64,000 nt of DNA. It comes from an uncultured Alphaproteobacteria bacterium. Lineage in GTDB: Bacteria; Pseudomonadota; Alphaproteobacteria; SP197. The notes below the pieces were generated by a model, which was not told the origin of the DNA, ran no database searches, and worked only from the letters and a program-made list of their open reading frames with translations. Numbering within the stretch: the first letter of the stretch is position 1; every line of letters starts with the position of its first letter. The DNA lies in contig CALIUG010000072.1 in NCBI GenBank assembly GCA_938048755.1, forward strand, positions 3,258 through 67,257, written 5' to 3'. Both the position numbers and the translations under genes were made by a program. Positions 1-41,361 of this stretch are shown piece by piece.

Positions 1-267
1 GACCAGATCCTTCCAGGAGACCGGCACGCCATCCAGCGGTCCCCGGCGCAGACCGTCCTTCTGACGCTGGCGTGCGGCCTGTGCTTCGGCCCTTGTGCGG
101 TCCTCGGCCATGCGGATGAACACCCGATGTTCAGGGTCCTCTGTTGCGATACGTTCCAGGAAAAACTCGGCCAAATCGACCGGGTCGATCACGCCCTTTG
201 CGATTCCCGCACCCAGTTCCATCGCCGTCAATTCGTGCCAGGCCTTGTCCATGGTCTTCTCCCGCAT
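1..267 (-). CDS. amidase (amidase-signature family), N-terminal portion; gene runs off the window edge
   Basis: Minus-strand translation from ATG at 265-267 reads MREKTMDKAWHELTAMELGAGIAKGVIDPVDLAEFFLERIATEDPEHRVFIRMAEDRTRAEAQAARQRQKDGLRRGPLDGVPVSWKDL. GPLDGVPxxxKD is the classic amidase N-terminal motif. The ORF is absent from the supplied track because it has no stop inside the window. Confidence 0.6.
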   Translation of the reverse strand, partial: MREKTMDKAWHELTAMELGAGIAKGVIDPVDLAEFFLERIATEDPEHRVFIRMAEDRTRAEAQAARQRQKDGLRRGPLDGVPVSWKDLV

Positions 268-299
268 GTTGTCATCTTGCTAGCACCGTGCGCGTGCTG

Positions 300-880
300 C
301 GGCCAGTGGCGGCAACCCGAACGGGTGTTTCGGGCTGATGTCGCCTCTCTCCTTTGTCGTCCTCCGGCTTGACCGGAGGACCCATGCTGTTGCGTCCCGG
401 CATGTGCCCATGGCGGTGTGTGGCGTGGTGGAAAGGTGCGTGCATGGATCCCCGATCAAGTCGGGGATGACAAGGTAGGTTGAGAGAGAAGCGCAGCACG
501 ATGGGCAGGAGCGGGCGCGACCGGGTGGTTCTGGCTGACGTCGCCTCCCCCGTTTGTCGTCGCCCGGCTTGACCGGAGGACCCGCCGCAGCGTGGCGGCC
601 TTCGCCCATGACGATAATGGGGCGGTGGAGAGGTCCGTGCATGGATCCCCGATCAGGTCGGGGATGACAAGGGAGGTTGAGAGAGAAGCGCAGCACGATG
701 GGCAAGAGCGAGAGCGACCGGGTGGTTCTGGCTGACGTCTCCTCCCCCATTTGTCGTCCTCCGGCTTGACCGGAGGACCCATGCTGTTGCGATGCGGCAT
801 GCGCCCATGACGGTGTGTGGCGTGGTGGAATGGTCCGTGCATGGATTCTCCGATCAAGTCGGAGAATGACTCAATGGATA
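300..880. repeat. tandem array of about 3 copies of a roughly 198-bp unit; each unit is a MITE-like element (about 125 bp) bounded by palindromic inverted repeats plus a roughly 70-bp spacer
   Basis: The marker catggatc recurs at 443, 640 and 840. Each unit starts with ..tttgtcgtcctccggcttgaccggaggacccatgc and ends with gcatggatccccgatcaagtcggggatgacaagg. The two ends are about 80% reverse-complementary, and each is itself a stem-loop. The spacer cagcacgatgggcaggagcgggcgcgaccgggtggttctggctgacgtcgcc also repeats. Confidence 0.85.
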
Positions 881-957
881 GAAAGCCGGATGGGTGTGCC
901 GCTCCGGGTCGACAGGCTGGTCAACAGTGCTTGGCGCCGGGGCCGGACGGGTGTTGA

Positions 958-2178
958 ATGGCGACCATGACAGATCGTTGCGATATCGCCATCGTGGGTG
1001 GCGGCCTGAACGGACAGACGGCGGCGCTGGCGCTGGCCCGCGCCGGCTTTGACGTCGTGATCGTGGAACGGGGCGACCCCGCCGCGAAACTGACTGATGC
1101 CTTTGATGGCCGGGTTTCCTCCATCGCCTATTGCTCCAAGCTGGTGCTCGACGCCCTGGGTGCCTGGGACGGCATGGCCGAACACGGCGAACCGATTCTG
1201 GAGATCCGTGTCTCGGATCGCGATGTGCCGCTCTTCCTGCATTACGACCATGCCGATGTCGGTGACGAACCGCTGGGCTGGATTCTGGAAAACCGGTTCA
1301 TCCGACGCGCCCTGGATGCAACGCTGGCCGCCACGCCGGGCGTGCGTGTTCTTGCCCCTGCCGAGGTCACCGACATGACGCGCGATGGCAACGGCGCGAG
1401 CCTTGCCATGGCCGACGGCGCCAGCCTTGCCTGTTCCCTGGTCGTGGCCTGTGACGGCGCGATGTCACCCATGCGCACAAGTGCCGGCATCAGCCACTGG
1501 AACCACGCCTATCACCAGCAGGGCATCGTCTGCACGGTGCGTCACGAACGACCCCATCGCGGCATTGCCCATGAACGGTTCCTGCCGTCGGGCCCCTTTG
1601 CCATCCTGCCCATCCCCGGCAACCTGGCTTCTCTGGTCTGGACCGAGAAGGACGCCATCGCCAACCGGGTCATGACGCTGGAACGCGACGACATTCTTGA
1701 AGAGATTGCCTGGCGTTTCGGTGATTTTCTGGGTGAGCTCGAACTGGTCGGCCCGGTCTGGAACTATCCCCTGCGTCTGGTGCTGGCGGACCGTTACACC
1801 GACCATCGCTTCGCGCTGCTGGGGGATGCCGCCCATGCCATCCATCCCATCGCGGGCCAGGGCTTCAATCTGGGCATCCGCGATTGCGCCGTGCTGGCCG
1901 AAGTGCTGGCCGATGGCCGGCGCCTGGGGCTCGAGCCCGGCGATGCCAGCCTGCTCGCCAACTATGCCCGCTGGCGCCGTACCGACATGATGGCGCTGGT
2001 GGCCGTGACCGACAGCCTGAACCGGCTGTTCTCCAATGCCCTTCCGCCCGTCGCCCTGGCGCGTGATCTGGGCCTTGCCGCGGTTAACCGCGTGCCGCCG
2101 CTCAAGAAGCTCTTCATGCGCCACGCCATGGGTACTGTCGGCAAGCTGCCCCGCCTGATGCGCGGCGAGTCTCTTTAG
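958..2178 (+). CDS. FAD-dependent ubiquinone-biosynthesis hydroxylase, UbiH/UbiF/VisC/COQ6 family
   Basis: 406 aa. N-terminal DIAIVGGGLNGQTAALALA Rossmann dinucleotide motif. The whole length is typical of 2-octaprenyl-6-methoxyphenol hydroxylase-type flavin monooxygenases (GDAAHAIHPIAGQGFNLGIRD). Confidence 0.8.
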   Translation: MATMTDRCDIAIVGGGLNGQTAALALARAGFDVVIVERGDPAAKLTDAFDGRVSSIAYCSKLVLDALGAWDGMAEHGEPILEIRVSDRDVPLFLHYDHADVGDEPLGWILENRFIRRALDATLAATPGVRVLAPAEVTDMTRDGNGASLAMADGASLACSLVVACDGAMSPMRTSAGISHWNHAYHQQGIVCTVRHERPHRGIAHERFLPSGPFAILPIPGNLASLVWTEKDAIANRVMTLERDDILEEIAWRFGDFLGELELVGPVWNYPLRLVLADRYTDHRFALLGDAAHAIHPIAGQGFNLGIRDCAVLAEVLADGRRLGLEPGDASLLANYARWRRTDMMALVAVTDSLNRLFSNALPPVALARDLGLAAVNRVPPLKKLFMRHAMGTVGKLPRLMRGESL

Positions 2179-2180
2179 CC

Positions 2181-2522
2181 GTGCAGACGCTGGGCGTCGT
2201 GCCACGCCTGTTTCCCGACGTCCTGAGCGGAGCCAAGACCTCCACCATCCGCTGGCGCGAGACCCGGATTCGTCACGGCTACATGACCTATGTCTGTGAT
2301 GGTGCACCCGACCGGACCGTGGTGGTCTGGGTCACACGCTGCACGGATGTGCCGTTGCGTGATGCTGCCGCCTTTGTCGGGCGCGAGGATGACTGGCCCG
2401 ACACCGTGATGCTGGATGGCATGCGCGAACACTATCCTGCGATCACGCTAGAGGATGTCGTGCAGGTGGTGGAACACCTCACACCCGACGAAACCCGCGC
2501 GCGGCCGGACTTCCCCTGCTGA
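2181..2522 (+). CDS. ASCH (PUA-like) domain protein
   Basis: 113 aa with a GTG start. The motif SGAKTSTIRW...GY resembles ASCH domain proteins. It abuts the UbiH-family gene. Confidence 0.5.
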   Translation: MQTLGVVPRLFPDVLSGAKTSTIRWRETRIRHGYMTYVCDGAPDRTVVVWVTRCTDVPLRDAAAFVGREDDWPDTVMLDGMREHYPAITLEDVVQVVEHLTPDETRARPDFPC

Positions 2523-2528
2523 GCCAGG

Positions 2529-3809
2529 TCAATCCCGTCCCGGTTCCGGGACCGTGCGCAGGATCAGCAGGCCCAGCAGCATCAGGACAACGATGACGCC
2601 CATGCCCAGGCGCTGGCTGTCGGTGGCAAAGGCAACCAGGCCGACCAGCAGGGGTCCGGCAAAGCTGGTGAATTTGCCTGACAGGGCAAAGAACCCGAAC
2701 ATCTCGCCGGTCATATCAGGCGGCGTCATGCGCGCCATCAGCGAGCGGCTGGCCGATTGCACCGGGCCGATGAAAAGGCCCAGCACCAGACCCAGGATCC
2801 AGAACCACAGGACGTCCTCGACGATCAGGATTGCTGCGCTGACCACGATCAGACAGGACAGGGTCAGGAAGAGCGTCTTGCGTGCACCGACCCGGTCATC
2901 CATCCAGGCAAAACCGAAAGCGCCCAGCCCAGCGGAGATGTTGAGCGCGATGGCAAAGGTCAAAACGCCTTCTTCGTCCATGGCAAAGGTCGTGGCGGCG
3001 TAAACCCCGCCCAGCGCAAACAGTGTGTTGAGGCCGTCGATATAGAGCAGGCGCGCGATCAGGAAACGCACGATGTTCTTGTGGCGGCCCAGTTCGCGCG
3101 CGGTCTCGACCAGGCGGCGCATGCCGTTGCGGGTTGCAGCACCGATCGTGACACGCGACGACACGCGGTCGGGTGCCCACACGAAGAGCGGCCAGCCGAA
3201 GAAGAGGTACCAGCCTGCCACCAGCAGGGCGACCACGCGCACATGTTCGGAGTTTGCCTTGTTCAGACCGAAGGGGGCCTGGGCGGGCATGATGAAGATG
3301 AAGAGCGCGGCACACAGGCACGCGATGCCTCCAGCATACCCCAGGCCCCAGGCCCAGCCCGACAGCCGCCCGATGTTCTTGGGTTCGGCCAGGTCCGGCA
3401 GCATGGCGTTGTTGAAGACCGTGCCGGTCTCGAACCCGACATTGACCAGGGCAACCAGGATCAGCGTCGGGATGATCCAGAACGGATCGGGTGCGGCAAA
3501 CCACAGGCCCGCCGTCGCCAGGATCGTGATGGCGCTGAAGAACCCCAGCCAGGGCTTGCGCGGTCCAGAGGCATCGGCAATGGCACCGGTGATCGGCGAC
3601 AGCACGGCAATGATCAACGCCGAAGCGGCAATGCCCCAGCTCCACAGCGCCAGCCCCTCGGCCTCGTTCCCGACAATGCCGCGTGCGAAATAGGGTGCGA
3701 AGACAAAGGTGACGACCACGGTCGGCGTGGGCGAATTGGCCCAGTCGAACAGGCACCACGCGGCAATCCCCCGTTTCTTGACGGGTCGGTCGAGTTGGAC
3801 GGCGGCCAT
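2529..3809 (-). CDS. MFS transporter, UMF1 (Atg22-like) family
   Basis: The CLFDWANSPTPTVVVTFVFAPYF signature typifies the UMF1 family. About 12 predicted TM segments. Likely start MAAVQLDRPVKKRG at 3809. Confidence 0.75.
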   Translation of the reverse strand: MAAVQLDRPVKKRGIAAWCLFDWANSPTPTVVVTFVFAPYFARGIVGNEAEGLALWSWGIAASALIIAVLSPITGAIADASGPRKPWLGFFSAITILATAGLWFAAPDPFWIIPTLILVALVNVGFETGTVFNNAMLPDLAEPKNIGRLSGWAWGLGYAGGIACLCAALFIFIMPAQAPFGLNKANSEHVRVVALLVAGWYLFFGWPLFVWAPDRVSSRVTIGAATRNGMRRLVETARELGRHKNIVRFLIARLLYIDGLNTLFALGGVYAATTFAMDEEGVLTFAIALNISAGLGAFGFAWMDDRVGARKTLFLTLSCLIVVSAAILIVEDVLWFWILGLVLGLFIGPVQSASRSLMARMTPPDMTGEMFGFFALSGKFTSFAGPLLVGLVAFATDSQRLGMGVIVVLMLLGLLILRTVPEPGRD

Positions 3810-3931
3810 GGATGCTCCGGTGCTGGTGGGCACACTCTAATGCAGTTTGCGCGTGTTGCGAGCCTGCGCATGCGGGTTGGCCATGGCTGTCACATGCTCT
3901 AGGGAAACAGAGACAGTTTCAGGAGCATCCC

Positions 3932-5041
3932 ATGGCCGACCTCTTCGACCCCCTCACCCTGCGTGGTCTTACCCTGCGCAACCGCATCGGGATTTCACCG
4001 ATGTGCCAGTACGCCAGCGAGGATGGCTTTGCCGAGAACTGGCATCTCGTGCATCTGGGCAGCCGTGCGGTCGGCGGCGCCGGGCTGGTGATCGCGGAGG
4101 CCAGCGGGGTCGAGGCGCGCGGCCGTATCACGCCGGGTTGCCTGGGCATCTGGAAGGACGAACACATCCCCATGCTGGCCGCCATCACGGAGTTCTGTCG
4201 TGAACAGGGCGCGGCCACGGGCATGCAGATCGCCCATGCCGGACGCAAAGCCAACGTCAACGAACCCTGGCTGGGCGACCGCACGCTGCTGGCCGACGAA
4301 GGTCCCTGGGAAGCCATCGCGCCCATGGCTGAGGCTTTCGATGCGCCCGATGGCGCGATCACCCACACGCCGCGCGCCATGACGGAGGACGACATCACCG
4401 GGGTGATCGGAGCCTTCGGTCAGGCCGCGCGCCGCTCGGTCGAGGCGCGCTTTGATCTTGTGGAGATTCATGGTGCCCATGGCTACCTGATCAACGAATT
4501 CCTCTCGCCCTTCACCAACCGGCGCGATGACGCCTGGGGTGGCGACTTCAACAGCCGCATCCGGTTCTGCATCGAAATAGTACGTGCCTGCCGCAGGGTC
4601 ATGCCCGATGCCATGCCGCTGCTCATCCGCCTTTCCTGTGTCGAGTGGAAGGACGGCGGCTGGACCCTGGAAGACACCGTCGCCCTGGCGCGCCTGCTCA
4701 AGGCTGAGGGCGTGGACATGATCGATTGCAGCTCCGGCTTCAACGTGCCCGACGAGTCCTATCCCTCCGGCCCGCTCTGGCAGGTGCCGTTCGCCCAGCG
4801 TGTGCGCCACGAGGCCGGCATCGCCACCGCGGCGGTCGGCGCCATCATGCGCCCCGATGAAGCCAACGGGATCATCACCAATGGCGAGGCCGACCTGGCG
4901 CTGATTGCCACCGCCTCGCTGCATGATGCCTACTGGCCCTGGCACGCCGCCATGGCGCTGGGCCGCGAAGAAGCGCTCCAGATGCCGGTCTCCTATGACT
5001 ATGTCCTGCGCGGCGGCTACGACGACGAAAGCGATGCGTGA
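3932..5041 (+). CDS. NADH:flavin oxidoreductase, Old Yellow Enzyme family (NamA/YqjM-like)
   Basis: Start MADLFDPLTLRGLTLRNRIGISPMCQY with RBS aggag at 3921-3925. OYE TIM-barrel motifs are present (HGAHGYLINEFLSP, GGRxxENRxRF). Confidence 0.85.
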   Translation: MADLFDPLTLRGLTLRNRIGISPMCQYASEDGFAENWHLVHLGSRAVGGAGLVIAEASGVEARGRITPGCLGIWKDEHIPMLAAITEFCREQGAATGMQIAHAGRKANVNEPWLGDRTLLADEGPWEAIAPMAEAFDAPDGAITHTPRAMTEDDITGVIGAFGQAARRSVEARFDLVEIHGAHGYLINEFLSPFTNRRDDAWGGDFNSRIRFCIEIVRACRRVMPDAMPLLIRLSCVEWKDGGWTLEDTVALARLLKAEGVDMIDCSSGFNVPDESYPSGPLWQVPFAQRVRHEAGIATAAVGAIMRPDEANGIITNGEADLALIATASLHDAYWPWHAAMALGREEALQMPVSYDYVLRGGYDDESDA

Positions 5042-5874
5042 TGCCTTACCTCACCACCGATGACGGTGTGCGTCTCTGGTACGACGACAGCGGCCATGCC
5101 TCCGGCCCGGTCGTGGTCTTTGCCCACGAGTTCGGCGGTGACCCCAGAAGCTGGAACGATCAGGTCGCGGCCTTTGCGCCGACATCCCGCTGCATCCGTT
5201 ACGCCGCGCGCGGCTTTGCCCCCTCTGACGTACCCCCGGACAAGGCCTCCTATGGCCAGGACCGCTCCACCCGTGATCTCGAACAGCTCGCCGATCATCT
5301 GGGCCTTGACGGCTTTCATCTGGTCGGTTGTTCCATGGGCAGCTTCACCAGCCTGATGTTTGCCTGCCGTCATCCCCGCCGCTTGGCTTCGCTCACCCTC
5401 TGTGGTGTCAGTTCCGGACCCCATGATGATGCAGAACGGGCGGCCTATCACGCCGGTCTGAACCAGGAGATCGCCATGCTGGTCGATGGCGCGGGCGAAG
5501 GGTCGGCGCGCTGGTTCCGTGATGACATCGCCAATGCAACCCTGGCCGCCAAACACCCCCGGCGCTGGGACGACTACCTGGAACGCACGCTCCATCAGTC
5601 CCATCACGGCGCGCTGATGACGGTCAGAACACTCCACTGGGATCGCATTTCGCTCAGGACAATCACGGATGAACTCGCCGCCATTCAGGCCCGGGTCCTG
5701 CTGATTTACGGCGAAGCAGACCTGCCCCGCGTCGACGAAACCAGCCGCTGGCTTGCCGAAGTTCTGCCCCATAATCGCCTGTGCCCGATACCGGGAGCCA
5801 GCCATCTGGTGCAGGTCGAGGAGCCGGAGCGCTTTAACGAAGAGCTCCGACTCCTGCTCGAAGGGTCAGACTGA
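5038..5874 (+). CDS. alpha/beta-fold hydrolase
   Basis: ATGA overlap with the upstream gene. VVVFAHEFGG oxyanion region and GCSMGS nucleophile elbow (GxSxG). 278 aa. Confidence 0.75.
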   Translation: MMPYLTTDDGVRLWYDDSGHASGPVVVFAHEFGGDPRSWNDQVAAFAPTSRCIRYAARGFAPSDVPPDKASYGQDRSTRDLEQLADHLGLDGFHLVGCSMGSFTSLMFACRHPRRLASLTLCGVSSGPHDDAERAAYHAGLNQEIAMLVDGAGEGSARWFRDDIANATLAAKHPRRWDDYLERTLHQSHHGALMTVRTLHWDRISLRTITDELAAIQARVLLIYGEADLPRVDETSRWLAEVLPHNRLCPIPGASHLVQVEEPERFNEELRLLLEGSD

Positions 5875-5890
5875 GGAAGAGAAGGAGCGC

Positions 5891-7108
5891 CTAACCCTTC
5901 ACGCATACGACCTGCTTGAGCGTGTGCACCACGTCGATCAGATCCGACTGCGCCGCCATCACGGCATCGATCGACTTGTAGGCCGCGGGTGTCTCGTCGA
6001 TCACACCCTTGTCCTTGCGGCATTCCACGCCGGCGGTTGCAAGCGCGTGATCCTCCACCGTGAAGGCCTTGCGTGCCGCCGTTCGGCTCATCGCCCGCCC
6101 GGCCCCATGGGAGCAGGAGCAGAACGATGCGGCATTGCCCTTGCCACGCACGATGAACGACTTCGCGCCCATGGAGCCTGGAATGATGCCCATCTCACCC
6201 TCGCCGGCGCGCACTGCGCCCTTGCGGGTGACCCAGACATCGGCACCGTAGTGATGCTCACGAGCAACATAGTTGTGGTGGCAGTTGACGGCCGCCGCAT
6301 CGACCGTGAACGCGGGCAGGTGCTCGCGCAATGCCGCCAGGACGGCCTCCATCATGGTTTCCCGGTTGGCCCGAGCGAAATCCTGAGCCCATCCGACCGC
6401 CTCGACGTAGTCGGCGAACACAGGTTCATCATCCTCGAACCAGGCAAGGTCCTGGTCTGGTACCGCAGCTGCCCCTTCACGCTGGGCCAGCATGTTGCGC
6501 GCCTCTTCGATGAAGAGCGTGCCGATACCGTTGCCCACACCACGGCTGCCGGAATGGAGCATCACCCACACGCGGTCCTCCTCATCCAGGCAGAGCTCGA
6601 TGAAGTGGTTCCCGGTGCCCAGTGAACCCATGTGAATGACATGGTTGGCCTGGCCGATCGCGGGCCGTTTGTCGGCAATGCGTCCGAGGCGTTCGGAGAG
6701 ACCGCTTTTGACGAACTGCCTGGCGATGGGATCAGGCACACCGTTCTTCCAGCCGCCCTTGGGACCGATCCCGCCATGGGGTACGGCCTTTTCTATGCCC
6801 GACCGAATTGCGGCCAGACTGTCGGGAAGCTGGTCTGCCGTCACGCTGGTGCGCCAGGCCATCATGCCGCAACCGATATCGACACCCACGGCCGCCGGAA
6901 TGATGGCACCCCTTGTGGGAATGACCGAACCGATCGTGGCACCACGGCCCAGATGCACGTCGGGCATGACCGCGACATGGATGTGCACGAAGTGCATGGC
7001 GGCGATGTTCTTGACCTGCTAGCGCGCCCGCTCCTCGACCGGCACGCCGTCGATCCACGCCCGGATGGGTGCACCACGGGTTTCGATGATCTGCGACTTG
7101 TCTTCCAT
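5891..7108 (-). pseudogene. rtcB: RNA ligase RtcB interrupted by an in-frame TAG at 7019-7021. It could be a nonsense mutation, a sequencing error or a read-through site. The downstream 368-aa ORF (5891-6997) is intact.
   Basis: The upstream ORF (ATG at 7106-7108, RBS ggaggagg) reads MEDKSQIIETRGAPIRAWIDGVPVEERAR, then TAG, then QVKNIAA-MHFVHIHVAVMPDVHLG in the same frame. This matches the E. coli RtcB N-terminus MNYELLTTENAPVKMWTKGVPVEADARQQLINTAKMPFIFKHIAVMPDVHLG with the TAG at the position of a Gln. The rest carries RtcB motifs (GVDIGCGM, HNHAGRE-like metal ligands). Confidence 0.7.
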
Positions 7109-7144
7109 CTTCCTTTTCCTCCTCCTTCCCGGTGGCTGACACCG

Positions 7145-7187
7145 GGCAACAAAAAAACCCCTCCTGGCGGTTGCCTGAAGGGGTCTG
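7145..7187 (-). terminator. rho-independent terminator on the minus strand, 35 nt upstream of the rtcB RBS
   Basis: Minus-strand sequence gACCCCTtcaggcaaccgccaggAGGGGTTTTTTTGttg: a GC stem followed by a U7 tract. Confidence 0.55.
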
Positions 7188-7469
7188 ATTCGTCCGGATG
7201 TTCCGGTCGATGCGGTTGGGTTTACCGCATCGTTGTCAAACGCTTCTCCAGGAATACGCATGTCGGCGCGACGCCGCATGACAGTCCCGTCGGGCTGTCG
7301 GCGTCGTGCCAGCGATTATCCTGCAGGAAGCGAATCATCGGATTCATCCTTTCGACCGCACCGGCCAATCCGATGCGGGGCGCGCATATCCCACATGTCA
7401 AAGTTGTGGTCAAGTCACTTGTCCTCATGACGGATCAGGTGAACCATGAACCCGAGACAAGGAGACACC

Positions 7470-8888
7470 ATGACCACACCTGCCCAATCCCTTCAGGCCG
7501 TGCTGACGGCCAACGACCACTTGCGGGTCGATGTTGACGGTGTGCTGATGATCGAAGAGATGCGCGCGAGCGATGTCGTGGAGCGGTTCGGGTCGCCGCT
7601 GTTTGTCTTTTCCGAAGCGACGTTGCGCGGCAACTATCGCCGGGCGCGTGATGCCTTTCAGGCGGTCTGGCCGGGACCGGTCAACGTCATGTTCGCAATC
7701 AAGTGCTGTCCCAACATGGCGGTGCGCGCAGTGCTGTTCGACGAAGGCGCCGGCGGCGACTGCTTCGGCATTCCAGAGATCGAGGCAACCTTTGCCGGCG
7801 GTGCCGACCCGGCAAAGATTGCGCTCAACGGCGGCAACAAGACCGTTGAGGAACTCGACCGCGCCGCAGAACTGGGCATCACCGTCAACATGGATGCGGC
7901 AGAAGAGATCGATCTCGTGCTTGCCGCGGCCCGGCGCACGGGCAGGACCATCCCGGTCAACATCCGCCTGAAGGTGATGCCGCCGGAGTTCGAGGAGTTC
8001 ACCTCGGACGCCTTTCCGGTCTCGGGCGATTTCCGCGAGGGCCTGCGCCGCTGGAAATGGGGTGTGACTCAGGAAACCGCCATCGCCATGGTCGAACGCC
8101 TGAAGACCCTGCCGGAACTGGATTGGACCGGCTGGCATGCCCATTACGGGCGTATGTCGAATCTGCTGGAAAACTACGCCGCCTTCCATGGCGAGTACGG
8201 CCGCATGATCGGTGCGATCTACGGGGCGACCGGTGTTCCGCCCCGTGTCATCGACATGGGCGGGGGCTGGTCGCGCGAACGCGATCCCGAATCGCGCTCG
8301 ACCGAGTCTCGGGGTGCACCCATCGAGGAGCAGGCCGCCACGGCGATCGGGGCGCTGCGGGCCAGGCTTGAAGAGGTTGGTCTTGATCCCTCGGATATCG
8401 CGGTCTGGCCGGAGCCCGGCCGCTACATCGCCGGCAATGCCGCGTTGATGCTCACACGCGTCGGGCTGGTCAAACACGATGCCGGGTTCTGCTGGATCAA
8501 TGTCGAGGCGAGCGAAAACAACCTGCCTGCCATCTGCAAGGAAGGCAGCGTCAACCACGTCACAGTCGCCTCGGGCATGCACCGTGAGGCTGACAGCCAG
8601 GCCGATGTCGTGGGTCCCATCTGCATTCCCTCGGTCATCGCCGAAGGGCTGCAAGTGCCGGGCGATCTTGGCACCGGCGAGGTCATGGCCGTGCTTGATG
8701 CCGGGTTCTACGCCGAAGGCGAAGCCTCGATGATCAACTCCGTACCCCTGCCCGCCAGCGTTCTGGTCACGGGCGGGGACGCCGAATGCATCAAGCGCGC
8801 CCAGACCTGGCAGGACGTCTTTGCAACCCAGATCATCCCCGACCGACTGCGCCGCGAAGGGTTGGGCGACAACCTGTGGCGGGGCTGA
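7470..8888 (+). CDS. type III PLP-dependent decarboxylase (diaminopimelate/ornithine/arginine decarboxylase family)
   Basis: Start MTTPAQS with RBS aaggaga. The alanine-racemase-like barrel includes the conserved PLP-lysine context FAIKCCPN and a C-terminal beta-domain. 473 aa. Confidence 0.7.
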   Translation: MTTPAQSLQAVLTANDHLRVDVDGVLMIEEMRASDVVERFGSPLFVFSEATLRGNYRRARDAFQAVWPGPVNVMFAIKCCPNMAVRAVLFDEGAGGDCFGIPEIEATFAGGADPAKIALNGGNKTVEELDRAAELGITVNMDAAEEIDLVLAAARRTGRTIPVNIRLKVMPPEFEEFTSDAFPVSGDFREGLRRWKWGVTQETAIAMVERLKTLPELDWTGWHAHYGRMSNLLENYAAFHGEYGRMIGAIYGATGVPPRVIDMGGGWSRERDPESRSTESRGAPIEEQAATAIGALRARLEEVGLDPSDIAVWPEPGRYIAGNAALMLTRVGLVKHDAGFCWINVEASENNLPAICKEGSVNHVTVASGMHREADSQADVVGPICIPSVIAEGLQVPGDLGTGEVMAVLDAGFYAEGEASMINSVPLPASVLVTGGDAECIKRAQTWQDVFATQIIPDRLRREGLGDNLWRG

Positions 8889-9389
8889 TCAGCCGGCGAC
8901 AGTGACCGCACTGTCGGCCGCAAACCCGATCCACGGGCTTGCCTCGCGGCCGGGCTCGGGCGCGTGGGGCAGACCCGCGAACATGTAGAGAGTTTCCTCA
9001 TCCACCGGCATCGCGGCGCTGTGCCAGACACCGGGTGCGACCACGACGGCCTCCCCGGGCTGCAGGACAAAGGCGATGGCTTCCTCGGCGCGCGGCTGCT
9101 CGGTGGCATCGGCGAGATCGCGGCCCGGTGCGACAACCTGGATCATGGGGCCGGTGATCGGCACCAGCAGTTCGATATCGGGATGGCGTTCCATGGCGGC
9201 GACGGTGCCGTCGCCACGGCGCGCCACGACCTGACCCAGCTTCAGATCCTGTCCGGTCAGCTCGGCAACGTTGAACCAGCAGTCGAATCCGGTTCCTTGA
9301 GAGGTTGGCGAACCCGAGGGTCTGGGCACGGCACGACCGAAGGGCGCAAAAGCGTCGGCATCCAACGGTTGGCAGGCGAGCATCTGCAT
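8889..9389 (-). CDS. ureidoglycolate lyase (AllA)-like cupin protein
   Basis: 166 aa. FxxxG, ERHP and GVWHS motifs parallel AllA (ERHPLGTQAF, NVWHHP). Confidence 0.5.
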   Translation of the reverse strand: MQMLACQPLDADAFAPFGRAVPRPSGSPTSQGTGFDCWFNVAELTGQDLKLGQVVARRGDGTVAAMERHPDIELLVPITGPMIQVVAPGRDLADATEQPRAEEAIAFVLQPGEAVVVAPGVWHSAAMPVDEETLYMFAGLPHAPEPGREASPWIGFAADSAVTVAG

Positions 9390-9679
9390 GTGGTCTTCTC
9401 CTGATCCTGCCGCAGGTTAACGCCAGGCCGGCATGCGGCGCCAGCCTGGTGATGGTTTCGAATCGACCGCCGCTTCAGAGCACACAGACGTGCGGTGAAC
9501 GTCCAGAGGTTGTGCATTGTGCGTGCTTCATGAACCTATGTTACCGATTTTGTAACGGCCAGTTTACATGTCAGTGAAAATCTTTCTGAAATACGAATTT
9601 CTGTTTTTTTTCCTGATCTTGCTGGTTTCCAATTCTTCTGCGCGTATGACGTTGATGAAATGCTTGGAGAGATGCAGAC

Positions 9680-10906
9680 ATGGCTAAAGGTTCGAATCCG
9701 AACGCCGCGAACGGTCTCGTTCGTAACGGCGGCGAAAATCACGCGAACGGTATGGTCCGCAACGGCGGGGGCAATGAAAAGTCCTATGCCGCCCACGCCG
9801 ACGCGACACAACAGATGGGTGGCGGAACGGGTCTATCGCCCGCGCTTTCGCTGGCCCATGACGACAGTTTCCTGATGGATGAAGACACCGTGCTGTCGGG
9901 CGATGTGCTGGGCAACGACGACATCATGCGTGATGGCACGGTCACACTCGCCGGTGACTCTGAAAACGGCACGGTTGTGATCGATGAAGAGGGCAATTTC
10001 ACCTATACGCCCGATGCCGACTTCTTCGGTGCCGACGGCTTCAGTTATACGTTTACCGACGTCTTTGGCAACGAGACCACGGCCACGGTCGCCATCACGG
10101 TCGAGAACGTCAATGACGTGCCGGTGGTCTCGGGGCCCATTGATCTTGGCGACACCACCGATGATGCGTCGATCACCTTCTCGGCTGCCGACCTTCTGGC
10201 GAATGCCAGCGATATCGACGGCGACACGCTTGGCGTCACCAACGTCGCGCTCGCCGATCCCTCCCAGGGAACGCTGATCGACAACGGCGACGACACCTTC
10301 ACCTTCGATCCAGCCGACGGTTTTGACGGCACGGCATCGATCGGGTTCGACGTCACCGACGGTGCGGCTTCGGTCGCTTCCTCCGCGTCGATTGATGTCG
10401 AGGCCTCGGGCCCCACGGGCGCCGGCGGCGACGGCCATATCGACTTTGACAGCGGTGTCATCACGGGAGGGCAGAACTATTTGAACGGCATCATGAATCC
10501 TGAAGGATACGTCGAGGATGGCTTTGTGTTCACGCCCATTGCCGATCCCAACCCTGCGCCGCATTCCTACGACTGGGGCATTTATCATCAGGGTTTCATT
10601 TTTCCGCTTCCCGGCGAGGATGCCGACAGCGAATTGCGTTTGAACAATGGCGGGACCACCATTCGCATCGAGCTCGAAAGCGGTGATTCGTTCTCGCTTC
10701 TGAGCATGATCCGCGATCCCGGCAGCATCAGCGGCACGGCGGTTCTCACCGGCTCGAACGGCGCGTCGGTGTATGTCTCCGGCACCTGGGGCACAGGGCC
10801 GACCACGATTGACCTCTCGGTTTTTGAAGATATCGACTATCTCGACATCTCGAAGCCGACCAATGGTGGTCAGATCGTTCTCGACGACTTCATGTACATC
10901 GCCTGA
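9680..10906 (+). CDS. cadherin-like/Ig-like (VCBS or tandem-95 type) repeat protein, probable secreted adhesin
   Basis: Repeated FTYTPDADFFGADGFSYTFTD...ATVAITVENVNDVP modules and an Asp/Gly-rich composition. No N-terminal signal peptide, so possibly a T1SS-type substrate. It is preceded by an unusually AT-rich 140-bp leader. Confidence 0.6.
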   Translation: MAKGSNPNAANGLVRNGGENHANGMVRNGGGNEKSYAAHADATQQMGGGTGLSPALSLAHDDSFLMDEDTVLSGDVLGNDDIMRDGTVTLAGDSENGTVVIDEEGNFTYTPDADFFGADGFSYTFTDVFGNETTATVAITVENVNDVPVVSGPIDLGDTTDDASITFSAADLLANASDIDGDTLGVTNVALADPSQGTLIDNGDDTFTFDPADGFDGTASIGFDVTDGAASVASSASIDVEASGPTGAGGDGHIDFDSGVITGGQNYLNGIMNPEGYVEDGFVFTPIADPNPAPHSYDWGIYHQGFIFPLPGEDADSELRLNNGGTTIRIELESGDSFSLLSMIRDPGSISGTAVLTGSNGASVYVSGTWGTGPTTIDLSVFEDIDYLDISKPTNGGQIVLDDFMYIA

Positions 10907-10972
10907 CCGGCGATCACGCTGCGACCATCGCGCCCGGCAGGTTTCGGCTTGCCGGGCGTTGTCATTTCAGCA

Positions 10973-11356
10973 TCAGATCTCGACGAGACCAGCCAGATTG
11001 TGTTCCTTGCGAAAGGTCGCGGGTTCGATTTCGACGACATCCACCGCCAGCGCCAGACCCATACCAGGGTTCAGGCCGGACACGCCGTCTTTCAGGGCGG
11101 CAAACAGCGTGTCGGCGATCTGCTGTTTTACCGCATCGCTGCGACCCGCCAGGATGCGTGCTGTGACCATGGCAAAGCGATGCTCGGGATTGCCGTCGGC
11201 CACCAGAACGCGTTCACGCCGTTCGGCACGGCTGCGCAGGGCGAGCAGGTCGATGGTGGGGCAGGTGAGCGCGGCATCATGCAGGGCCCGGACCAGCACG
11301 TTGATGTCGAGATCGCTCTCCAGATTGGCGGAATGTTCCAGGATGATGTGCGGCAT
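10973..11356 (-). CDS. 5-carboxymethyl-2-hydroxymuconate isomerase (CHMI/HpcD family)
   Basis: MPHIILEHSANL start and overall similarity to E. coli HpcD (MPHFIVECSDNI...). 127 aa. Confidence 0.7.
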   Translation of the reverse strand: MPHIILEHSANLESDLDINVLVRALHDAALTCPTIDLLALRSRAERRERVLVADGNPEHRFAMVTARILAGRSDAVKQQIADTLFAALKDGVSGLNPGMGLALAVDVVEIEPATFRKEHNLAGLVEI

Positions 11357-11368
11357 GGTCGGGGCTCC

Positions 11369-12112
11369 TCAGGGCAGAGGCCACAGGATGCAGGCATCCG
11401 CGGCACAGGCATCCAGGGCAGAATTGGTTTGCGGGCCGGCAATCCCGTCGGGGGGGCCAGGATCGTATCCTGCGTCGATCAGGGCCTGCTGATACTTCGC
11501 AACGCCTTCCATGCCATGGAGTGAAAGTGCGCGTCTGAATTCGGCTGACGCCTCTTCTCTCCTGCCCAGGGCGGCCTGAATGTGCGCCAGCGTATCGACC
11601 GCGCGCACCTCATCGGGCGCCAGCCGCAACGCTTCGCGGACATCCTCCAGGGCATGCTGCGGGTCGCCGTTCAGCAGGGCAATCCAGGCGCGCGTGTTCC
11701 AGGCGGGGTGAAAGTCCGCGTCGGCCGCCAAGGCCGCATCCATCGCGCGTGTTGCTTCGTCCAGACGCCGCTGCTTCATCAGGGCGCGTCCCAGACGGTG
11801 ATGCGCCATGGCAAGCTCTCCGGCCTCAAGTCCGCCATTCTCGATGCACAGGTCATAGAGCTTTTCTGCCTGGCGCCACGCGCTCTCTTCCATCTTTGCA
11901 TGGCCCCGGTCGCACCAGGTCAGGTCGCCAGCCCGCGCAGGCATGTCGATCCAGACACCCACCGACAGGATGCCCACCATCGCCAGAAGCGTGCTGCGGG
12001 TAAGTCGTCTGATCGGGGCATGGTCCATGCCCGATCGTGCCATGAAATCAAACAGATTGCAGCGTCCAGGCTTCAGGGTGCAATCCAGGCACTGCCAAGC
12101 CGAAAATTTCAT
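11369..12112 (-). CDS. TPR-repeat protein with C-terminal peptidoglycan-binding (PG_binding_1) domain
   Basis: Internal TPR-like helices, and a C-terminal YQQALIDAGYDPGPPDGIAGPQTNSALDA motif typical of PG-binding domain 1. An N-terminal hydrophobic segment is present. The true start may be internal. Confidence 0.55.
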   Translation of the reverse strand: MKFSAWQCLDCTLKPGRCNLFDFMARSGMDHAPIRRLTRSTLLAMVGILSVGVWIDMPARAGDLTWCDRGHAKMEESAWRQAEKLYDLCIENGGLEAGELAMAHHRLGRALMKQRRLDEATRAMDAALAADADFHPAWNTRAWIALLNGDPQHALEDVREALRLAPDEVRAVDTLAHIQAALGRREEASAEFRRALSLHGMEGVAKYQQALIDAGYDPGPPDGIAGPQTNSALDACAADACILWPLP

Positions 12113-12192
12113 GGCATGGTCTGGGAACCGCGCATCCGCCGTACTGATTCACAAGGTGGATGCAGGGCTATCGACATGGGTTCGGAATCGAC

Positions 12193-15100
12193 ATGACAGA
12201 AGATGCAGCGCCGCCACAGAGGCGCCCCTGGTATGCCAGACGCCGCATTCTTTTCAGCGGTGTTCTGCTGGCCGCGTTCGTTGCTGCGGTGGTGTTTGCC
12301 GGTGCGGCCATGCTGCGCGGCCCTCTTGAAGGGGTCCTCTCATCAGAACTGGGTCGCGACGTCTCGATCAACGGCGTCATGACCCTGGGCTGGTCGGGTG
12401 GACCGACCCTGATTGCCAGCGATGTCAGCATCGCTGGCAATACCGTTGAGGAACCGGCGGTAGAGGCCGGACGTGTCGATGTGGGTCTGGCGGTCGATCC
12501 CCTGTTGCGGGGCGAGATTGTCGTTACCCACGCCCATTTTTCGGATGTCCTGATCCGCCTTGATCAAATGGATCGAGGTGCACCTCAAGAGGATGCTGCA
12601 GACATCCTGGCTGATCCGATCTCTCCGCCGACGGCCGCCGATCTTGCGATCGTGTCGGGTGATCTTGATATCACGCTCGAGAACGTCACGGTGGAATCGG
12701 GCACCGGTGATCAACTGGTGATTGACGCACTGGAACTGACGTCGAATGCCCGGGACGGCCTTGCAGCACAAGGCAGCCTGGAACTTGGTGGTCGCTCTTT
12801 CACCCTCACACTGACCGGTGGCCGACCCGGTGATCTGGCCGGTGATCAGGCGTTTCCGATTGATCTTGTGATCTCCGACGGTGAAACGCGGCTCGAAGCC
12901 CATGGTTCGGTCGTGGACGCGCTGAGCGACCTCAATGCCGTCTTCACCCTGGATGGTCAGGGGCGTGATCTCGATGGTTTGCTCAGCGCCTTTGATGTTG
13001 CGACCGGCTTCGAGGACAACTTCGACTTCCATGCCGGCCTGTCACTGGATGACGGACTTGTCCGGGTCAGCGACCTTTCCGTCGATGCCGGAGGGTTCAG
13101 CGCCCAGGGCGACCTTGCCGTGAACCTTGTGACGCAACCCATGGCCATCTCTGGTGACCTCAAGCTCAGTGTCCTCCCGGCCCGGACCACCAGCGACGAT
13201 GATGCCCCCGGGGAACCGGAATTTGATCTGGGCGCCCTGCTTGACCGGACCGTCCCCTATCATCTGCTTGAAACCCTGGACCTCGATCTCAAGCTCGCTC
13301 TGGGCCATCACGATCTCGGGCCCTTTGCGATGGACGACATCGTGCTTCCCATCGTCCTGCAGGAGGGTCATCTGGCCATCTCGCCGATTGACGTCACGCT
13401 GGATGGCCAGGCGTTTGAAGCCCATGTCGAGGTTGACCTGGAGGGGCAGGCGGTCGCGGTGCGTGTTCTGGGCGACAACATGCCGCTTTCGGAACTGCTG
13501 ATCCGCCTGCGTCCGGACCTGGGACTCAAGGGCGATGCCAACGGTCTTGTCTTCAAGGCCGACGCGCAGGGCCAGGATCTGCGCAGCCTGCTGTCCTCGC
13601 TCAAGCTTGATCTCAGCCTCGCCAGTTTCTTTGTCGAGAACACCTATGACGATGGCACCCTCGTCGTGTTCGAGGTTGATGCGTTGAAGGCCACTGCGGG
13701 CACGGGGGAAGGCTTGCGGCTTTCGGCCAACGGCAGACTGGACAACGAAACAGCTGCGATCTCCCTGGCTGGTGGTCGTTTGCGCGATCTCTTCGATAAC
13801 GAGAACCACTGGCCCATTGAACTTCACATCGGCAACAGCCAGCGCGGCATTGAACTGGCCGGGGTTCTCACGCGGCCCGATGATCTCAAGGGCCTCCATA
13901 TGGAAGGCCTCGTGAACGCCTCCGACGTGCAGCATGTCGCCGAACTGCTGGATATCAACCTGCCCTTTCAGGGTGATGTCCAGGCCTATCTCCATGTTTC
14001 GGATCTGGAAGACGGCGTGCGGTTTGACTGGATTGATCTGGAGGTCGGCAACAGTTCGCTCAACGGGACGCTGGATGTCACCTATGCCGATGATCTTGTC
14101 GGCATTACCGGTTCGCTCACGGCACCAAACCTGAAGATCGACACCGGGGAGGGCGAAGAGAATTTTGACGCGCCTCTGCTTGAACATGGCGACCTCGATG
14201 GCGTCTATGCCGACATTGCGCTGGATATCCAGAGGATTAAGGTCGCAACAGTGCGCCTGCGTTTCATCGATGCGCATCTCAACATCAAGGACGGTGTTCT
14301 CCGGATCGATGACGCGGATGCCACGGTGTTTGAAACCGTCGCCGAGGTTCACGTGCAGGTTGATGCGTTTTCCAACCCGCCCGTGCTCTCCTTCAAGGTT
14401 GCCACCGGAGAGGTCAATCCCTCCCACGTCGGCAACGATCTGGGCATGGAGGGGTTCATGACCGGTCATATCGGCAACATCGAGGTCTCGGCACGTGCAC
14501 AGGGGGTCACCCTGCGCGACCTTTCTGATGATGCCGATGTCACACTCCTGATCGAGGATGGCGCGCTTTCGATCGGTGAAGGCGCGACGTCCCTGGAGTT
14601 TGTCTCTCTCAATCTGACGGCAAAACCCGGCCAGCCGGCATCCGGGTCGGAATCCGTGGTTCTGGCCGGTATCCCGATTGATCTCGATCTCGAGTTCGTG
14701 ACGCTGACCGATCTCTTCATCGAACCCTCCCCCTGGACGCTGACCGCGAGCGGCGCCCTGCTCGGCCTCAACTTCTCCATTGCGCGTGAGATCACCCCGG
14801 CGCTGCAGGTCTATGCTCTGCCTGTCACCATGCACATGGAATCCGATGACCTGCGCACCGCTCTGGCCGAATTCGAGATCGATCTGCCCCAGGCCCTGCC
14901 GCTCAGGACACGCGGCACACTCCAGATGCTCGATGACCGCATCGCGTTTGACCTGGAGGAGACCCAGCTTGCGAATACCGACCTGCGTGGCAAGCTTGAG
15001 GTCTGGATCGAGGGCGAGCCGCCCAGGGTCCAGGCCGATTTCGATTCCACCCTGTTCACGGTGGACGATTTCGTCGAAGCCGAACCGGTCAGCGAGATCA

Positions 15101-15927
15101 CCGATTTCGATATCGTCACCTTCCTTGCCGATCCCCTGCCGGCCTGGGAGATGCCCGATGTCGATCTGAAGGTCACTCTGGATGCGCAGACGATCCACTG
15201 GGACGGGACCGACATGACCGAAGCCAGTTTGCAGATCACCACATCCAATGACGCCATCCATCTTGATGACCTCAGCGTGCGGGTGTTCAACGGCAAGGTG
15301 CTGGGAAGCCTTTCGCTCCAGCCCGTGGGTGATGCAACCCATGCCATTGCATCGCTGGATGTCGAGGAAATCGATGCCGACGATGTCTTCCGCCTGACCG
15401 GCATTGCCGAAGAAGCTGCCGGCGAACTGGAACTGCTTCTGAAAGTCGATACCTCGGGAACGTCGACGGGTGGGATGCTTGGCGCGCTGGACGGCAGCAT
15501 GCTGCTCAAGCGTGGCGAAGGCTGGATCAAGTCGGGCGCGATCGAGATCCTGAACGAGGATCTTTTCACTGCCCTGCTCAGCCCCGCCGGGCGCATTCCG
15601 GTGCGCTGTACCGTAGTCGATCTTGCCTTCCAAGCGGGCCAAGGCACGTTCGGTGAATCCTTCGTCGCACTTCAGAACGTCGTGCTGGGCATTGTCGGGT
15701 CCCTCAATCTCGACGCCATGACAATCAACGCCGAGGTGATCACCAAGTCCCTGGACGGCACCTTCATGCGTCTGCTCACCCCGGTACGCGTCAACGGCGA
15801 TCTGCTCGATCCCGACATCGGCCCGCGCACCGGCGACCTCATCTCCGGCCTGGGTGCGGCCCTGTTCGGCGCCGGCCCCACCTATGACGGCGACATCAAC
15901 GCCAAATGCGCCGCCGCGGCGGGGTGA
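12193..15927 (+). CDS. AsmA-family envelope protein (AsmA/TamB-like), about 1245 aa
   Basis: N-terminal single TM anchor (ILFSGVLLAAFVAAVVFAGAAML), then a very long Asp/Leu/Gly-rich beta-rich region typical of AsmA-like proteins. The long antisense ORF 13042-15642 is a GC artefact. Confidence 0.65.
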   Translation: MTEDAAPPQRRPWYARRRILFSGVLLAAFVAAVVFAGAAMLRGPLEGVLSSELGRDVSINGVMTLGWSGGPTLIASDVSIAGNTVEEPAVEAGRVDVGLAVDPLLRGEIVVTHAHFSDVLIRLDQMDRGAPQEDAADILADPISPPTAADLAIVSGDLDITLENVTVESGTGDQLVIDALELTSNARDGLAAQGSLELGGRSFTLTLTGGRPGDLAGDQAFPIDLVISDGETRLEAHGSVVDALSDLNAVFTLDGQGRDLDGLLSAFDVATGFEDNFDFHAGLSLDDGLVRVSDLSVDAGGFSAQGDLAVNLVTQPMAISGDLKLSVLPARTTSDDDAPGEPEFDLGALLDRTVPYHLLETLDLDLKLALGHHDLGPFAMDDIVLPIVLQEGHLAISPIDVTLDGQAFEAHVEVDLEGQAVAVRVLGDNMPLSELLIRLRPDLGLKGDANGLVFKADAQGQDLRSLLSSLKLDLSLASFFVENTYDDGTLVVFEVDALKATAGTGEGLRLSANGRLDNETAAISLAGGRLRDLFDNENHWPIELHIGNSQRGIELAGVLTRPDDLKGLHMEGLVNASDVQHVAELLDINLPFQGDVQAYLHVSDLEDGVRFDWIDLEVGNSSLNGTLDVTYADDLVGITGSLTAPNLKIDTGEGEENFDAPLLEHGDLDGVYADIALDIQRIKVATVRLRFIDAHLNIKDGVLRIDDADATVFETVAEVHVQVDAFSNPPVLSFKVATGEVNPSHVGNDLGMEGFMTGHIGNIEVSARAQGVTLRDLSDDADVTLLIEDGALSIGEGATSLEFVSLNLTAKPGQPASGSESVVLAGIPIDLDLEFVTLTDLFIEPSPWTLTASGALLGLNFSIAREITPALQVYALPVTMHMESDDLRTALAEFEIDLPQALPLRTRGTLQMLDDRIAFDLEETQLANTDLRGKLEVWIEGEPPRVQADFDSTLFTVDDFVEAEPVSEITDFDIVTFLADPLPAWEMPDVDLKVTLDAQTIHWDGTDMTEASLQITTSNDAIHLDDLSVRVFNGKVLGSLSLQPVGDATHAIASLDVEEIDADDVFRLTGIAEEAAGELELLLKVDTSGTSTGGMLGALDGSMLLKRGEGWIKSGAIEILNEDLFTALLSPAGRIPVRCTVVDLAFQAGQGTFGESFVALQNVVLGIVGSLNLDAMTINAEVITKSLDGTFMRLLTPVRVNGDLLDPDIGPRTGDLISGLGAALFGAGPTYDGDINAKCAAAAG

Positions 15928-18006
15928 TCAGGCACCGTCCACACGTTCGATCTCGGGCATTTCCCGACGGAACGGCACGGCGTCTTCGTCGATCCGGGCT
16001 TCCAGATTGCGGGCGTGTTTATGGCCGGAATAGACCGCTGCTGCGATGGTCCCCGGTGCATAGGCATCTCCCAACAGGCTCACCGTTTCCACGCCGGCAG
16101 TCTGCCAGTCGTCCTTCTTGTCCTTCAGCTCCAGATAGAGAGCGTCGTTGGGAAGCCGTGCCGTGACGGGAACAACGGTGTCGCAGGCCAGCGTCTGGCG
16201 CCGTCCCGTGAAGACACATTCAACGGTCACGGAACCACCGTTCACCGCCACGATGGTGTGGTTGACCAGAAGGGTCTCAAAGGCTTCTGCGACTGCGCGG
16301 TGAATCCGGTGCTGGTCAAGCGCCGCCGTTGACCAGGACGACACGATGCCGGCCGGTGTCACTAACGAGACCGTATTGCCTTCGCCGGCGAGCAGCTCCG
16401 CCATGACACTGGCCATGTAGTAGTGGTCATCGTCATAGATCAGGTAATGGCTGCCCCGGCGTTGACCGGCCAGAAGGTCGTCGGGCGTCAGGCCTTGATC
16501 CGACAGGCCCAGCACCGCGTGCTGATGATGGCGCGCCACCCCGTCCCGGCGCCAGGTCGAGCCCGTGGCGATCATGATGTGACGAAAGCCGAACTCTAGG
16601 GCGTCGGCGCAGCCGATCTCGCTTTCGAGATAGGTCTCGACATTGGGCATGATGCCGATCTGGTTGGTCCGGTAATCGGCGACCCGCCCCCATGTTGCCA
16701 GACCCGGCAGTCCGGCCTCATGGCGCACGCGTCCGCCCAATTCTGCATCACGTTCAGCCAGGGTGACCCCGTAACCCCGCTCACCCAGCAGGCGCGCACA
16801 TTCAAGACCGGCCGGTCCGCCACCCACGATCAGAACCGAAGAATCCGAAGTCTTTGGCGCAACGCGTTCAGGATGCCAGCCCTTGCGCCATTCCTCACCT
16901 TGGGTCGGGTTCTGCGTGCACCGGATCGGCACCGCGATCTCGTCATGGGCAACACAGATGTTGCACCCGATGCACTCGCGGATGTCGTCGATGCGCCCCT
17001 CTTCGATTTTCTTCGGCAGGAACGGATCGGCGATGGAGGGACGAGCCGCCCCGATAAAGTCGATCAGACCCCGCCTGACCTGGGACACCATGGTATCGGG
17101 TGAGGTAAACCGGCCTACCCCCACGACGGGTTTTGTCGTCAGCTTCTTGATGTTGAGGATGTAGGGCTCCTCGACTGCCTCGGGCGCGAACCGTGATGTC
17201 TGGGAGTCATTGGACCAGTCCGAAAGCGTGACGTCCCAGAGGTCGGGCAGTTCGGCCAGCATGCCGATGGCATCCTCTGCTTCGTGGAGTTCCAGCCCCT
17301 TGCCGCCGACCAGTTCATCCAGACTGATGCGCACCGCGACGGCGGCGCGGCCCGCAACTTCATCCAGCGTGTCTTCCAGGATCTCGCGCAACAGCCGCAC
17401 GCGGTTTTCCAGACTGCCGCCGTAGGCATCGTCGCGATGGTTCCAGCGCGGCGACAGGAAATGAAACAGGATGGAAAGATTGTGGGCGGCATAGACATAG
17501 ATGATGTCAAAATCCGCCTTCAGCGCCCGTCGCACCGCCTGGCGATGCCAGTGGCGCAGCCGTGCCAGGTCGTCTCCGTCCATGGCGCGGCACTGCACCG
17601 GATCGGGCCTGGATGTCTGAACCGGCAGGTGACTGGGGGCCAGTGGAATCTCGCGCGTATACATGCTCGACATGGCATAGGCGTTGTAGGCCAGCTCGAC
17701 GCCGGCCAGAGCGCCGTGTTCATGTACCTTTGCGGCCATCAGTTCGAGCGTGGGCAGGTCACGATCGTCCCACAGCCGCATCTCGACCAGGGGAGAGCTG
17801 TCGGCGGAGGGATGGAACTCACACTGTTCGGTGTTGACGACGGCCCACCCGCCTTCGGCCTTGATCCCCCGCATGGTTGCCATGGCAGAGGGATGCAGAT
17901 GCCCCAGGCCATTGCAGTGGGGCACCTGATAGAAGCGGTTGCGCACCGTCCTGGGTCCGATGGCGACGGGCTCGAACAGGATGTCGTAGCGTGGGTCTCT
18001 CGGCAT
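15928..18006 (-). CDS. FMN/FAD/[4Fe-4S] flavoprotein of the trimethylamine/dimethylamine/histamine dehydrogenase, 2,4-dienoyl-CoA reductase or N-methylproline demethylase family
   Basis: 692 aa. N-terminal OYE-like TIM barrel. CIGCNICV Cys cluster (Cx2Cx2C...C) for the 4Fe-4S. C-terminal Rossmann ADP-binding domain (VLIVGGGPAGLE). Confidence 0.7.
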   Translation of the reverse strand: MPRDPRYDILFEPVAIGPRTVRNRFYQVPHCNGLGHLHPSAMATMRGIKAEGGWAVVNTEQCEFHPSADSSPLVEMRLWDDRDLPTLELMAAKVHEHGALAGVELAYNAYAMSSMYTREIPLAPSHLPVQTSRPDPVQCRAMDGDDLARLRHWHRQAVRRALKADFDIIYVYAAHNLSILFHFLSPRWNHRDDAYGGSLENRVRLLREILEDTLDEVAGRAAVAVRISLDELVGGKGLELHEAEDAIGMLAELPDLWDVTLSDWSNDSQTSRFAPEAVEEPYILNIKKLTTKPVVGVGRFTSPDTMVSQVRRGLIDFIGAARPSIADPFLPKKIEEGRIDDIRECIGCNICVAHDEIAVPIRCTQNPTQGEEWRKGWHPERVAPKTSDSSVLIVGGGPAGLECARLLGERGYGVTLAERDAELGGRVRHEAGLPGLATWGRVADYRTNQIGIMPNVETYLESEIGCADALEFGFRHIMIATGSTWRRDGVARHHQHAVLGLSDQGLTPDDLLAGQRRGSHYLIYDDDHYYMASVMAELLAGEGNTVSLVTPAGIVSSWSTAALDQHRIHRAVAEAFETLLVNHTIVAVNGGSVTVECVFTGRRQTLACDTVVPVTARLPNDALYLELKDKKDDWQTAGVETVSLLGDAYAPGTIAAAVYSGHKHARNLEARIDEDAVPFRREMPEIERVDGA

Positions 18007-41117: not shown

Positions 41118-41124
41118 TTTCGCG

Positions 41125-41286: not shown

Positions 41287-41361
41287 ATGGGATCGTCGAG
41301 CCGAAGCCAGGAAACCTCCCCCGTTCCGCCCTGGACCACGCGCGCCTCGGAGGGAGGTCGG

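Follow-up and report, generated by a model that had tools for sequence, protein, structure and literature searches.

The closest described counterpart of the gene considered here is rtcB of E. coli, which encodes a 3'-phosphate/5'-hydroxyl RNA ligase and lies in the rtcR-rtcBA locus, adjoining rtcA and rtcR, the gene for a sigma-54 activator. Six residues of the E. coli protein (C78, N167, H168, H185, H281 and H337) are taken here, from the mutagenesis work of the Shuman laboratory, to have metal-binding and guanylylation roles. In-frame rtcB deletions of E. coli in the Keio collection are viable (PMC5175333), and the N-terminal region of the protein is not mentioned in a review of RtcB (PMC10630183).

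The rtcB gene in the window (the whole 64-kb stretch of DNA that was analysed) encodes a protein that resembles E. coli RtcB over its full length, with 59% amino-acid identity, and the two share the N-terminal strands and helix, the aligned catalytic residues and a C-terminal VCVKG. They differ in two respects. In E. coli the gene is unbroken, with Gln at the aligned codon (CAG in E. coli LF82, which bears out what an earlier note on this DNA had said of the E. coli residue), whereas the window gene has a premature TAG. The E. coli gene also has rtcA and rtcR as neighbors, whereas the window gene is solitary and has no sigma-54 promoter. A second point of comparison is the ordinary nonsense pseudogene, with which the window gene shares a single point mutation, intact sister alleles, no further decay as yet, and an automated annotation that calls the longest remaining ORF (P0121, 368 aa). 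Nothing substantive separates the window gene from this class; what is notable is the occurrence of several rtcB alleles, apparently damaged independently, in one population. The window rtcB is likely to be a young pseudogene, i.e. a real and recent E30-to-stop allele carried by part of a natural population of an uncultured alphaproteobacterium in which the gene is probably dispensable.

The interrupted reading frame and its surroundings

The features of the locus are collected in Table 1. Ahead of the amber codon are 29 RtcB-like sense codons, MEDKSQIIETRGAPIRAWIDGVPVEERAR, and the codons that follow it in the same frame read QVKNIAA and then the ATG of Met-38, which the earlier note had numbered 39. 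That note had described an RtcB N-terminus with its own ribosome-binding site, in frame with the rest of the gene and split from it by a single TAG, and direct reading of the sequence, Pfam and tblastn all confirm this arrangement. When the stop is replaced by Gln, the read-through product matches the Pfam RtcB family (PF01139) with E = 3.9e-122 over model positions 1-426 of 426. Using P0125, the protein of an intact relative, as a tblastn query, residues 1-405 align across the TAG at 98.8% identity, and the resemblance of the codons before the TAG to RtcB is therefore not due to chance.

The full-length frame is interrupted at codon 30, but the 368 codons after the TAG are otherwise intact, an observation that fits a very young pseudogene and equally a product in use. 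The RtcB family residues aligned to the six E. coli positions listed above are all present, and are invariant in an alignment of 89 sequences. The 368-aa ORF is represented in a public collection as P0121. No second rtcB was detected by tblastn within the 64-kb window.

Table 1. Positions of the features of the rtcB locus in the window.
Feature	Position	Strand	Description and basis
Terminator-like hairpin followed by seven T's	7151..7185	(-)	About 30 nt upstream of the rtcB RBS, within a strongly folding leader
Shine-Dalgarno-like AGGAGG	7118..7123	(-)	9 nt upstream of the ATG at 7108; sequence read directly
rtcB start codon, ATG	7108-7106	(-)	Sequence read directly
Whole rtcB frame	5891..7108	(-)	405 codons plus terminal TAG, interrupted at codon 30; translation, Pfam, tblastn
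N-terminal fragment	7019..7108	(-)	29 sense codons plus TAG; spans two strands (6-8, 15-17) and the first turn of the helix at 26-36, as predicted by AlphaFold2 for P0001
In-frame amber TAG, codon 30	7019..7021	(-)	Relatives have GAG (L003, L004, L005, L007), AAG (L001) or TAG (L002)
Internal ATG, Met-38	6995..6997	(-)	21 nt (7 codons) past the TAG; first codon of the 368-aa ORF
368-aa ORF	5891..6997	(-)	All catalytic and metal-binding residues kept; ends with TAG at 5893-5891 after the family's conserved C-terminal VCVKG
Codon 43, ATC (Ile)	6980..6982	(-)	S43I, G to T at 6981; TAG haplotype only (window, L002); Ile in 0 of 85 homologs
Codon 219, CAG (Gln)	6452..6454	(-)	R219Q; window only; the 85 homologs have R, K or M only

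The earlier description of rtcB as solitary is also supported. Neither a Pfam search of the approximately 40 largest window ORFs picked nor the gene tables of the relatives contain RtcA, RtcR, archease or PrfH. There is no adjacent rtcA, and E. coli RtcA has no tblastn match in the window; similarly, RtcR has no match, the GAFTGA motif occurs nowhere in the window, and no sigma-54 promoter (TGGCAY-N5-TTGC) is found upstream of rtcB. When 80 genome loci were inspected together with as much as 6 kb of flank per side, rtcA was nearby in 24 and an rtcR-like gene in 31. The loci with such neighbors are mostly gamma-, beta- and deltaproteobacterial, and because the closest alphaproteobacterial loci mostly have neither gene, the solitary state of rtcB is its native state, common to the intact alleles.

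Two further features of the window and its relatives lie outside the rtcB gene. In L001, a BrnT/BrnA toxin-antitoxin pair (6416-6929) is situated between MFS transporter and ASCH genes, with a junction corresponding to a point near window position 2517. Neither the window nor L004 has the pair, a ribonuclease toxin cassette that varies between strains and lies about 3.4 kb from rtcB. At window positions 41115-41337 on the plus strand, upstream of cobW and cobN, there is a cobalamin riboswitch (78 bits), which is the expected arrangement and is unrelated to the TAG in rtcB.

Codon 30 in near-identical genomes

Relatives were found by a protein search that led to P0001, which is 405 aa long and shares 99% identity with the read-through product. 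Its 90% cluster has seven members, and the contigs encoding them were aligned with the window. Over the stretch of rtcB that each covers, these seven public assemblies share 98.6-99.9% nucleotide identity with the window, and six of them cover codon 30, with L006 stopping short of the site. Four assemblies have GAG (Glu) at this codon, L001 has AAG (Lys), and only two of the sequences that cover the site, the window and L002, have TAG. L002, a contig of 1,645 bp that Logan assembled from run ERR9287632, reads GAGGAGCGGGCGCGCTAGCAGGTC.

The window and L002 also share S43I and a synonymous C to A change at 6794 (codon 105), both absent from the other assemblies. They are not identical sequences, as they differ at codon 219, where R219Q is confined to the window. 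It is nevertheless the case that the two might be separate assemblies of the same reads; even so, the presence of the TAG in both rules out an error specific to one assembler. On the evidence of these sequences, the TAG belongs to a real haplotype, seen in two assemblies.

Intact orthologous alleles at the same locus are present in near-identical genomes, and encode P0125 (L004 and L005), P0126 (L003) and P0001 (L001). Like the window, these population alleles have the gene order Orn/DAP decarboxylase, rtcB, alpha/beta hydrolase and OYE reductase, which is kept in all relatives with enough flank. Their leader and RBS region is that of the window except for a few single-base differences and one 1-nt difference in the length of a T-run. 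Unlike the window, they encode the full 405-aa protein, with GAG or AAG as codon 30 and Ser as residue 43. A recent nonsense mutation, one of the possibilities raised in the earlier note, is consequently the best reading of the locus, given that relatives at 98.6-99.9% identity carry the intact gene in the same neighborhood. The route proposed there, from CAG to TAG, is not borne out. Because the nearest intact relatives carry GAG, the mutation was almost certainly a G-to-T transversion from GAG to TAG.

Searches of genome and metagenome collections did not add to this set of close relatives. An exact scan of these collections with the 26-mer CAGGTCAAGAACATCGCCGCCATGCA gave no match, and protein-guided scans of both returned only relatives at 70% identity or less. 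The species is therefore not represented in them.

The N-terminus and the decoding of the stop

Codon 30 had been described in the earlier note as a conserved Gln, but the position varies. Of 85 homologs that are 65-75% identical, 54 have R, 11 have Q, seven M, five L and three A; when 160 orthologous loci of the genome and metagenome collections are compared, the residues include E (39), Q (33), A (24), R (22) and K (20), and a stop is found in 0 of 160. The invariant Gln is instead that of codon 31, with Q31 present in 160 of 160 loci. The N-terminus as a whole does matter. W18, G21, V22, A28, Q31 and A36 are invariant in 89 sequences, none of the 160 loci has an alignment that starts later than query residue 14, and the lengths of the homologs lie in the range 396-439 aa. 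When the intact allele P0001 is modelled with AlphaFold2 (mean pLDDT 82, pTM 0.86), residues 1-40 have a pLDDT of 80-91, with strands predicted at residues 6-8 and 15-17 and a helix at residues 26-36. The TAG falls inside this predicted helix and Met-38 just past it.

These data bear on the possibility that ribosomes reinitiate at Met-38 and produce an active 368-residue RtcB without the N-terminus, in which case the allele would be a functional variant and not a pseudogene. Bacteria are well known to reinitiate translation past early nonsense codons, as in lacI and T4 rIIB. Here, the ATG is only seven codons past the stop, the ORF that it opens is intact, with the equivalents of all six catalytic residues kept, and S43I arose on the same haplotype, near what would be the new N-terminus. 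Such a product would keep the catalytic residues; however, judging from the alignment and the model, it would lose two strands, one helix and the six invariant residues, and the three structural elements are confidently predicted. The position of Met-38 is Leu in 81 of 85 homologs and is not a start in any of the 160 loci, so that the orthologs naturally starting at the internal Met which the earlier note had envisaged were not found when the comparison was run. Coupled with a lack of any Shine-Dalgarno sequence at a usable distance from Met-38 and the absence of the TAG allele from most close relatives, this makes reinitiation improbable, though it is the foremost of the alternatives. Somewhat less probable again is a low level of read-through at the TAG, whether through a near-cognate tRNA or through a suppressor tRNA whose gene lies elsewhere, that would supply a small and possibly regulated amount of full-length RtcB. 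The variability of position 30 suggests that any inserted amino acid would give an active enzyme, and the stop stands in the context UAG-C, at which bacterial termination is generally weak. At background level, however, read-through usually falls well below 1%, and a conserved stop is not observed, as five of the seven sequences at the site, window included, have the sense codons GAG or AAG. Folding of the 100 nt that surround and follow the TAG is no more stable than that of shuffled sequence (z = +0.74), which provides no sign of a stimulatory RNA structure. Rfam likewise detects nothing near rtcB, either at the gathering threshold over the whole window or at an E-value threshold over 6900-7500. 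The sole tRNA in the window is a tRNA-Gly (GCC), and no tRNA with a CUA anticodon, and hence no suppressor of this kind, is found within its 64 kb.

The use of TAG as an ordinary terminator stands against read-through and against decoding of the codon as an amino acid, whether pyrrolysine or through a reassigned code. A scan for split ORFs, based on same-frame ORF pairs and third-position GC content, gave too many false positives to be usable, and a tally of stop codons over provisional genes was used in its place. TAG ends rtcB itself, at the conserved VCVKG, and 8 of 43 provisional genes in the window. Near-identical strains have Glu or Lys at codon 30, and no pyl genes are present among the ORFs scanned by Pfam. 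Apart from the in-frame TAG, nothing points towards such decoding, which is effectively refuted and is by far the least probable of the four alternatives. Programmed read-through, pyrrolysine and code reassignment are all without support, because TAG is a normal terminator here, because no suppressor tRNA within the window, nearby Rfam match or stable structure goes with it, and because most members of the population lack the stop. It could also be argued that the TAG is an artefact of sequencing, assembly or consensus calling and that the true codon is GAG. The contig is metagenome-derived, the window and L002 could share source reads, and G-to-T changes are a known oxidative-damage artefact of library preparation. 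Errors arising from such damage are, however, of low frequency and do not reach the consensus, and a second assembly, built separately (Logan, ERR9287632), has the TAG as well, along with both of the other haplotype-specific substitutions, which are linked to it within 230 nt. The sequencing error entertained in the earlier note is accordingly unlikely, and an artefact of any of these kinds is given about the same low probability as read-through. Ordered by probability, then, reinitiation at Met-38 precedes read-through and artefact, and recoding of the TAG comes last.

A young pseudogene remains the preferred reading. A single G-to-T transversion would have converted codon 30 from GAG (Glu) to TAG in a solitary and previously functional rtcB. 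Ribosomes would begin at the ATG at 7108 and terminate after a 29-residue peptide, and at most trace amounts of protein would be made via near-cognate read-through or reinitiation at Met-38, neither of which is likely to have been selected for. Cells would tolerate the loss, given that RtcB in bacteria is an RNA-repair ligase linked to stress without which they survive. The TAG, its sense-codon alleles in near-identical relatives, the variability of codon 30, the conserved N-terminus and the ordinary use of TAG as a terminator are observations; loss of function, and with it the dispensability of the gene in this organism, is what we infer from the allele. The locus is best regarded as an ordinary young pseudogene rather than a case of programmed recoding.

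Selection, other damaged alleles and the leader

On the branch leading to L001, rtcB has 12 synonymous and three nonsynonymous changes, and the gene was therefore under purifying selection in the lineage before the nonsense mutation. A comparison of the window with L004 over 17.1 kb (1-17114) gives 99.76% identity, with about 24 nonsynonymous, seven synonymous and four intergenic differences. This excess of nonsynonymous changes among very close strains is not specific to rtcB, and because the whole 17-kb neighborhood shows it, it provides no independent sign of decay in rtcB. It is usual in very recently diverged strains, in which mildly deleterious changes have yet to be purged. In the same comparison, 10 of the 35 substitutions are G:C to T:A transversions, and there is a single 6-nt in-frame indel, in a cadherin-like gene at window positions 10430-10435.

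Within the gene, S43I of the TAG haplotype and R219Q of the window introduce residues unseen in the 85 homologs, but as a sign of relaxed constraint these few changes are to be set against the nonsynonymous excess of the surrounding 17 kb. Deviations at sites conserved across the family were considered as evidence of decay, and number six in the window lineage versus 0-5 in other sequences. They were rejected for this purpose, being mostly conservative and common to intact alleles.

Other rtcB alleles in the population are also damaged. L006 and L007 (JGI 3300050182 and 3300052689) both have P110T and F231C, at sites that are invariant in the 85 homologs. L007 has in addition a frameshifting deletion of 79 nt that removes the HSGSRGVGN region, although its contig is only 1,048 bp long and is possibly misassembled. 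As read from these contigs, the two alleles are damaged independently of the TAG in the same population. Eight near-identical assemblies thus contain three independent kinds of damage: the change of E30 to a stop, the pair P110T and F231C, and the 79-nt frameshifting deletion. Separately, a distant rtcB with 62% identity (L111; Ga0114947_10150142, 1,487 bp) has an in-frame TGA in its MPDVH-x-G motif, which is the only other in-frame stop among the 160 orthologous loci.

The leader of rtcB (7109-7300, minus strand) folds into a row of hairpins with a predicted energy of -86.9 kcal/mol (z = -4.79 versus shuffled sequence). The hairpin and T-run listed in Table 1 look like an attenuator, and as there is no room for a promoter between the hairpin and the RBS, transcription of rtcB must pass through them. 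A promoter and terminator scan found no sigma-70-like promoter upstream of rtcB. The leader is not matched by any Rfam family, is not repeated elsewhere in the window and is not conserved in 80 distant rtcB loci. Upstream of it is a 68-aa ORF (7428-7222) with no Pfam match.

Divergence from L001 is uneven across this region. Between window positions of about 5937 and 7736 there are 0-8 mismatches per 200 nt, whereas the flanking genes mostly have 8-26 per 200 nt, and an upstream stretch of about 320 nt is identical in the two. This low-divergence island, which comprises rtcB and its leader, is suggestive of recent recombination between lineages with an overall identity of about 95%.

With several damaged alleles in one population, it may be asked whether the loss of RtcB is selected for there rather than tolerated, or whether the TAG allele is kept as a low-expression state; both are considered improbable. 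Were loss to be selected, religation of RNA could be harmful, for example by undoing the cell's own toxin-mediated or anti-phage cleavage of RNA. If the damaged alleles do reflect selection against RtcB, which these data do not show, they would be informative about the cost of RNA repair in nature.

For annotation, the value of the finding is that the entry for P0121 (368 aa) should mark it as what is left, at the tail end, of a disrupted gene. For the organism, the allele probably represents a loss-of-function polymorphism in an accessory RNA-repair gene that has been caught young, and as such it is of little biological weight.
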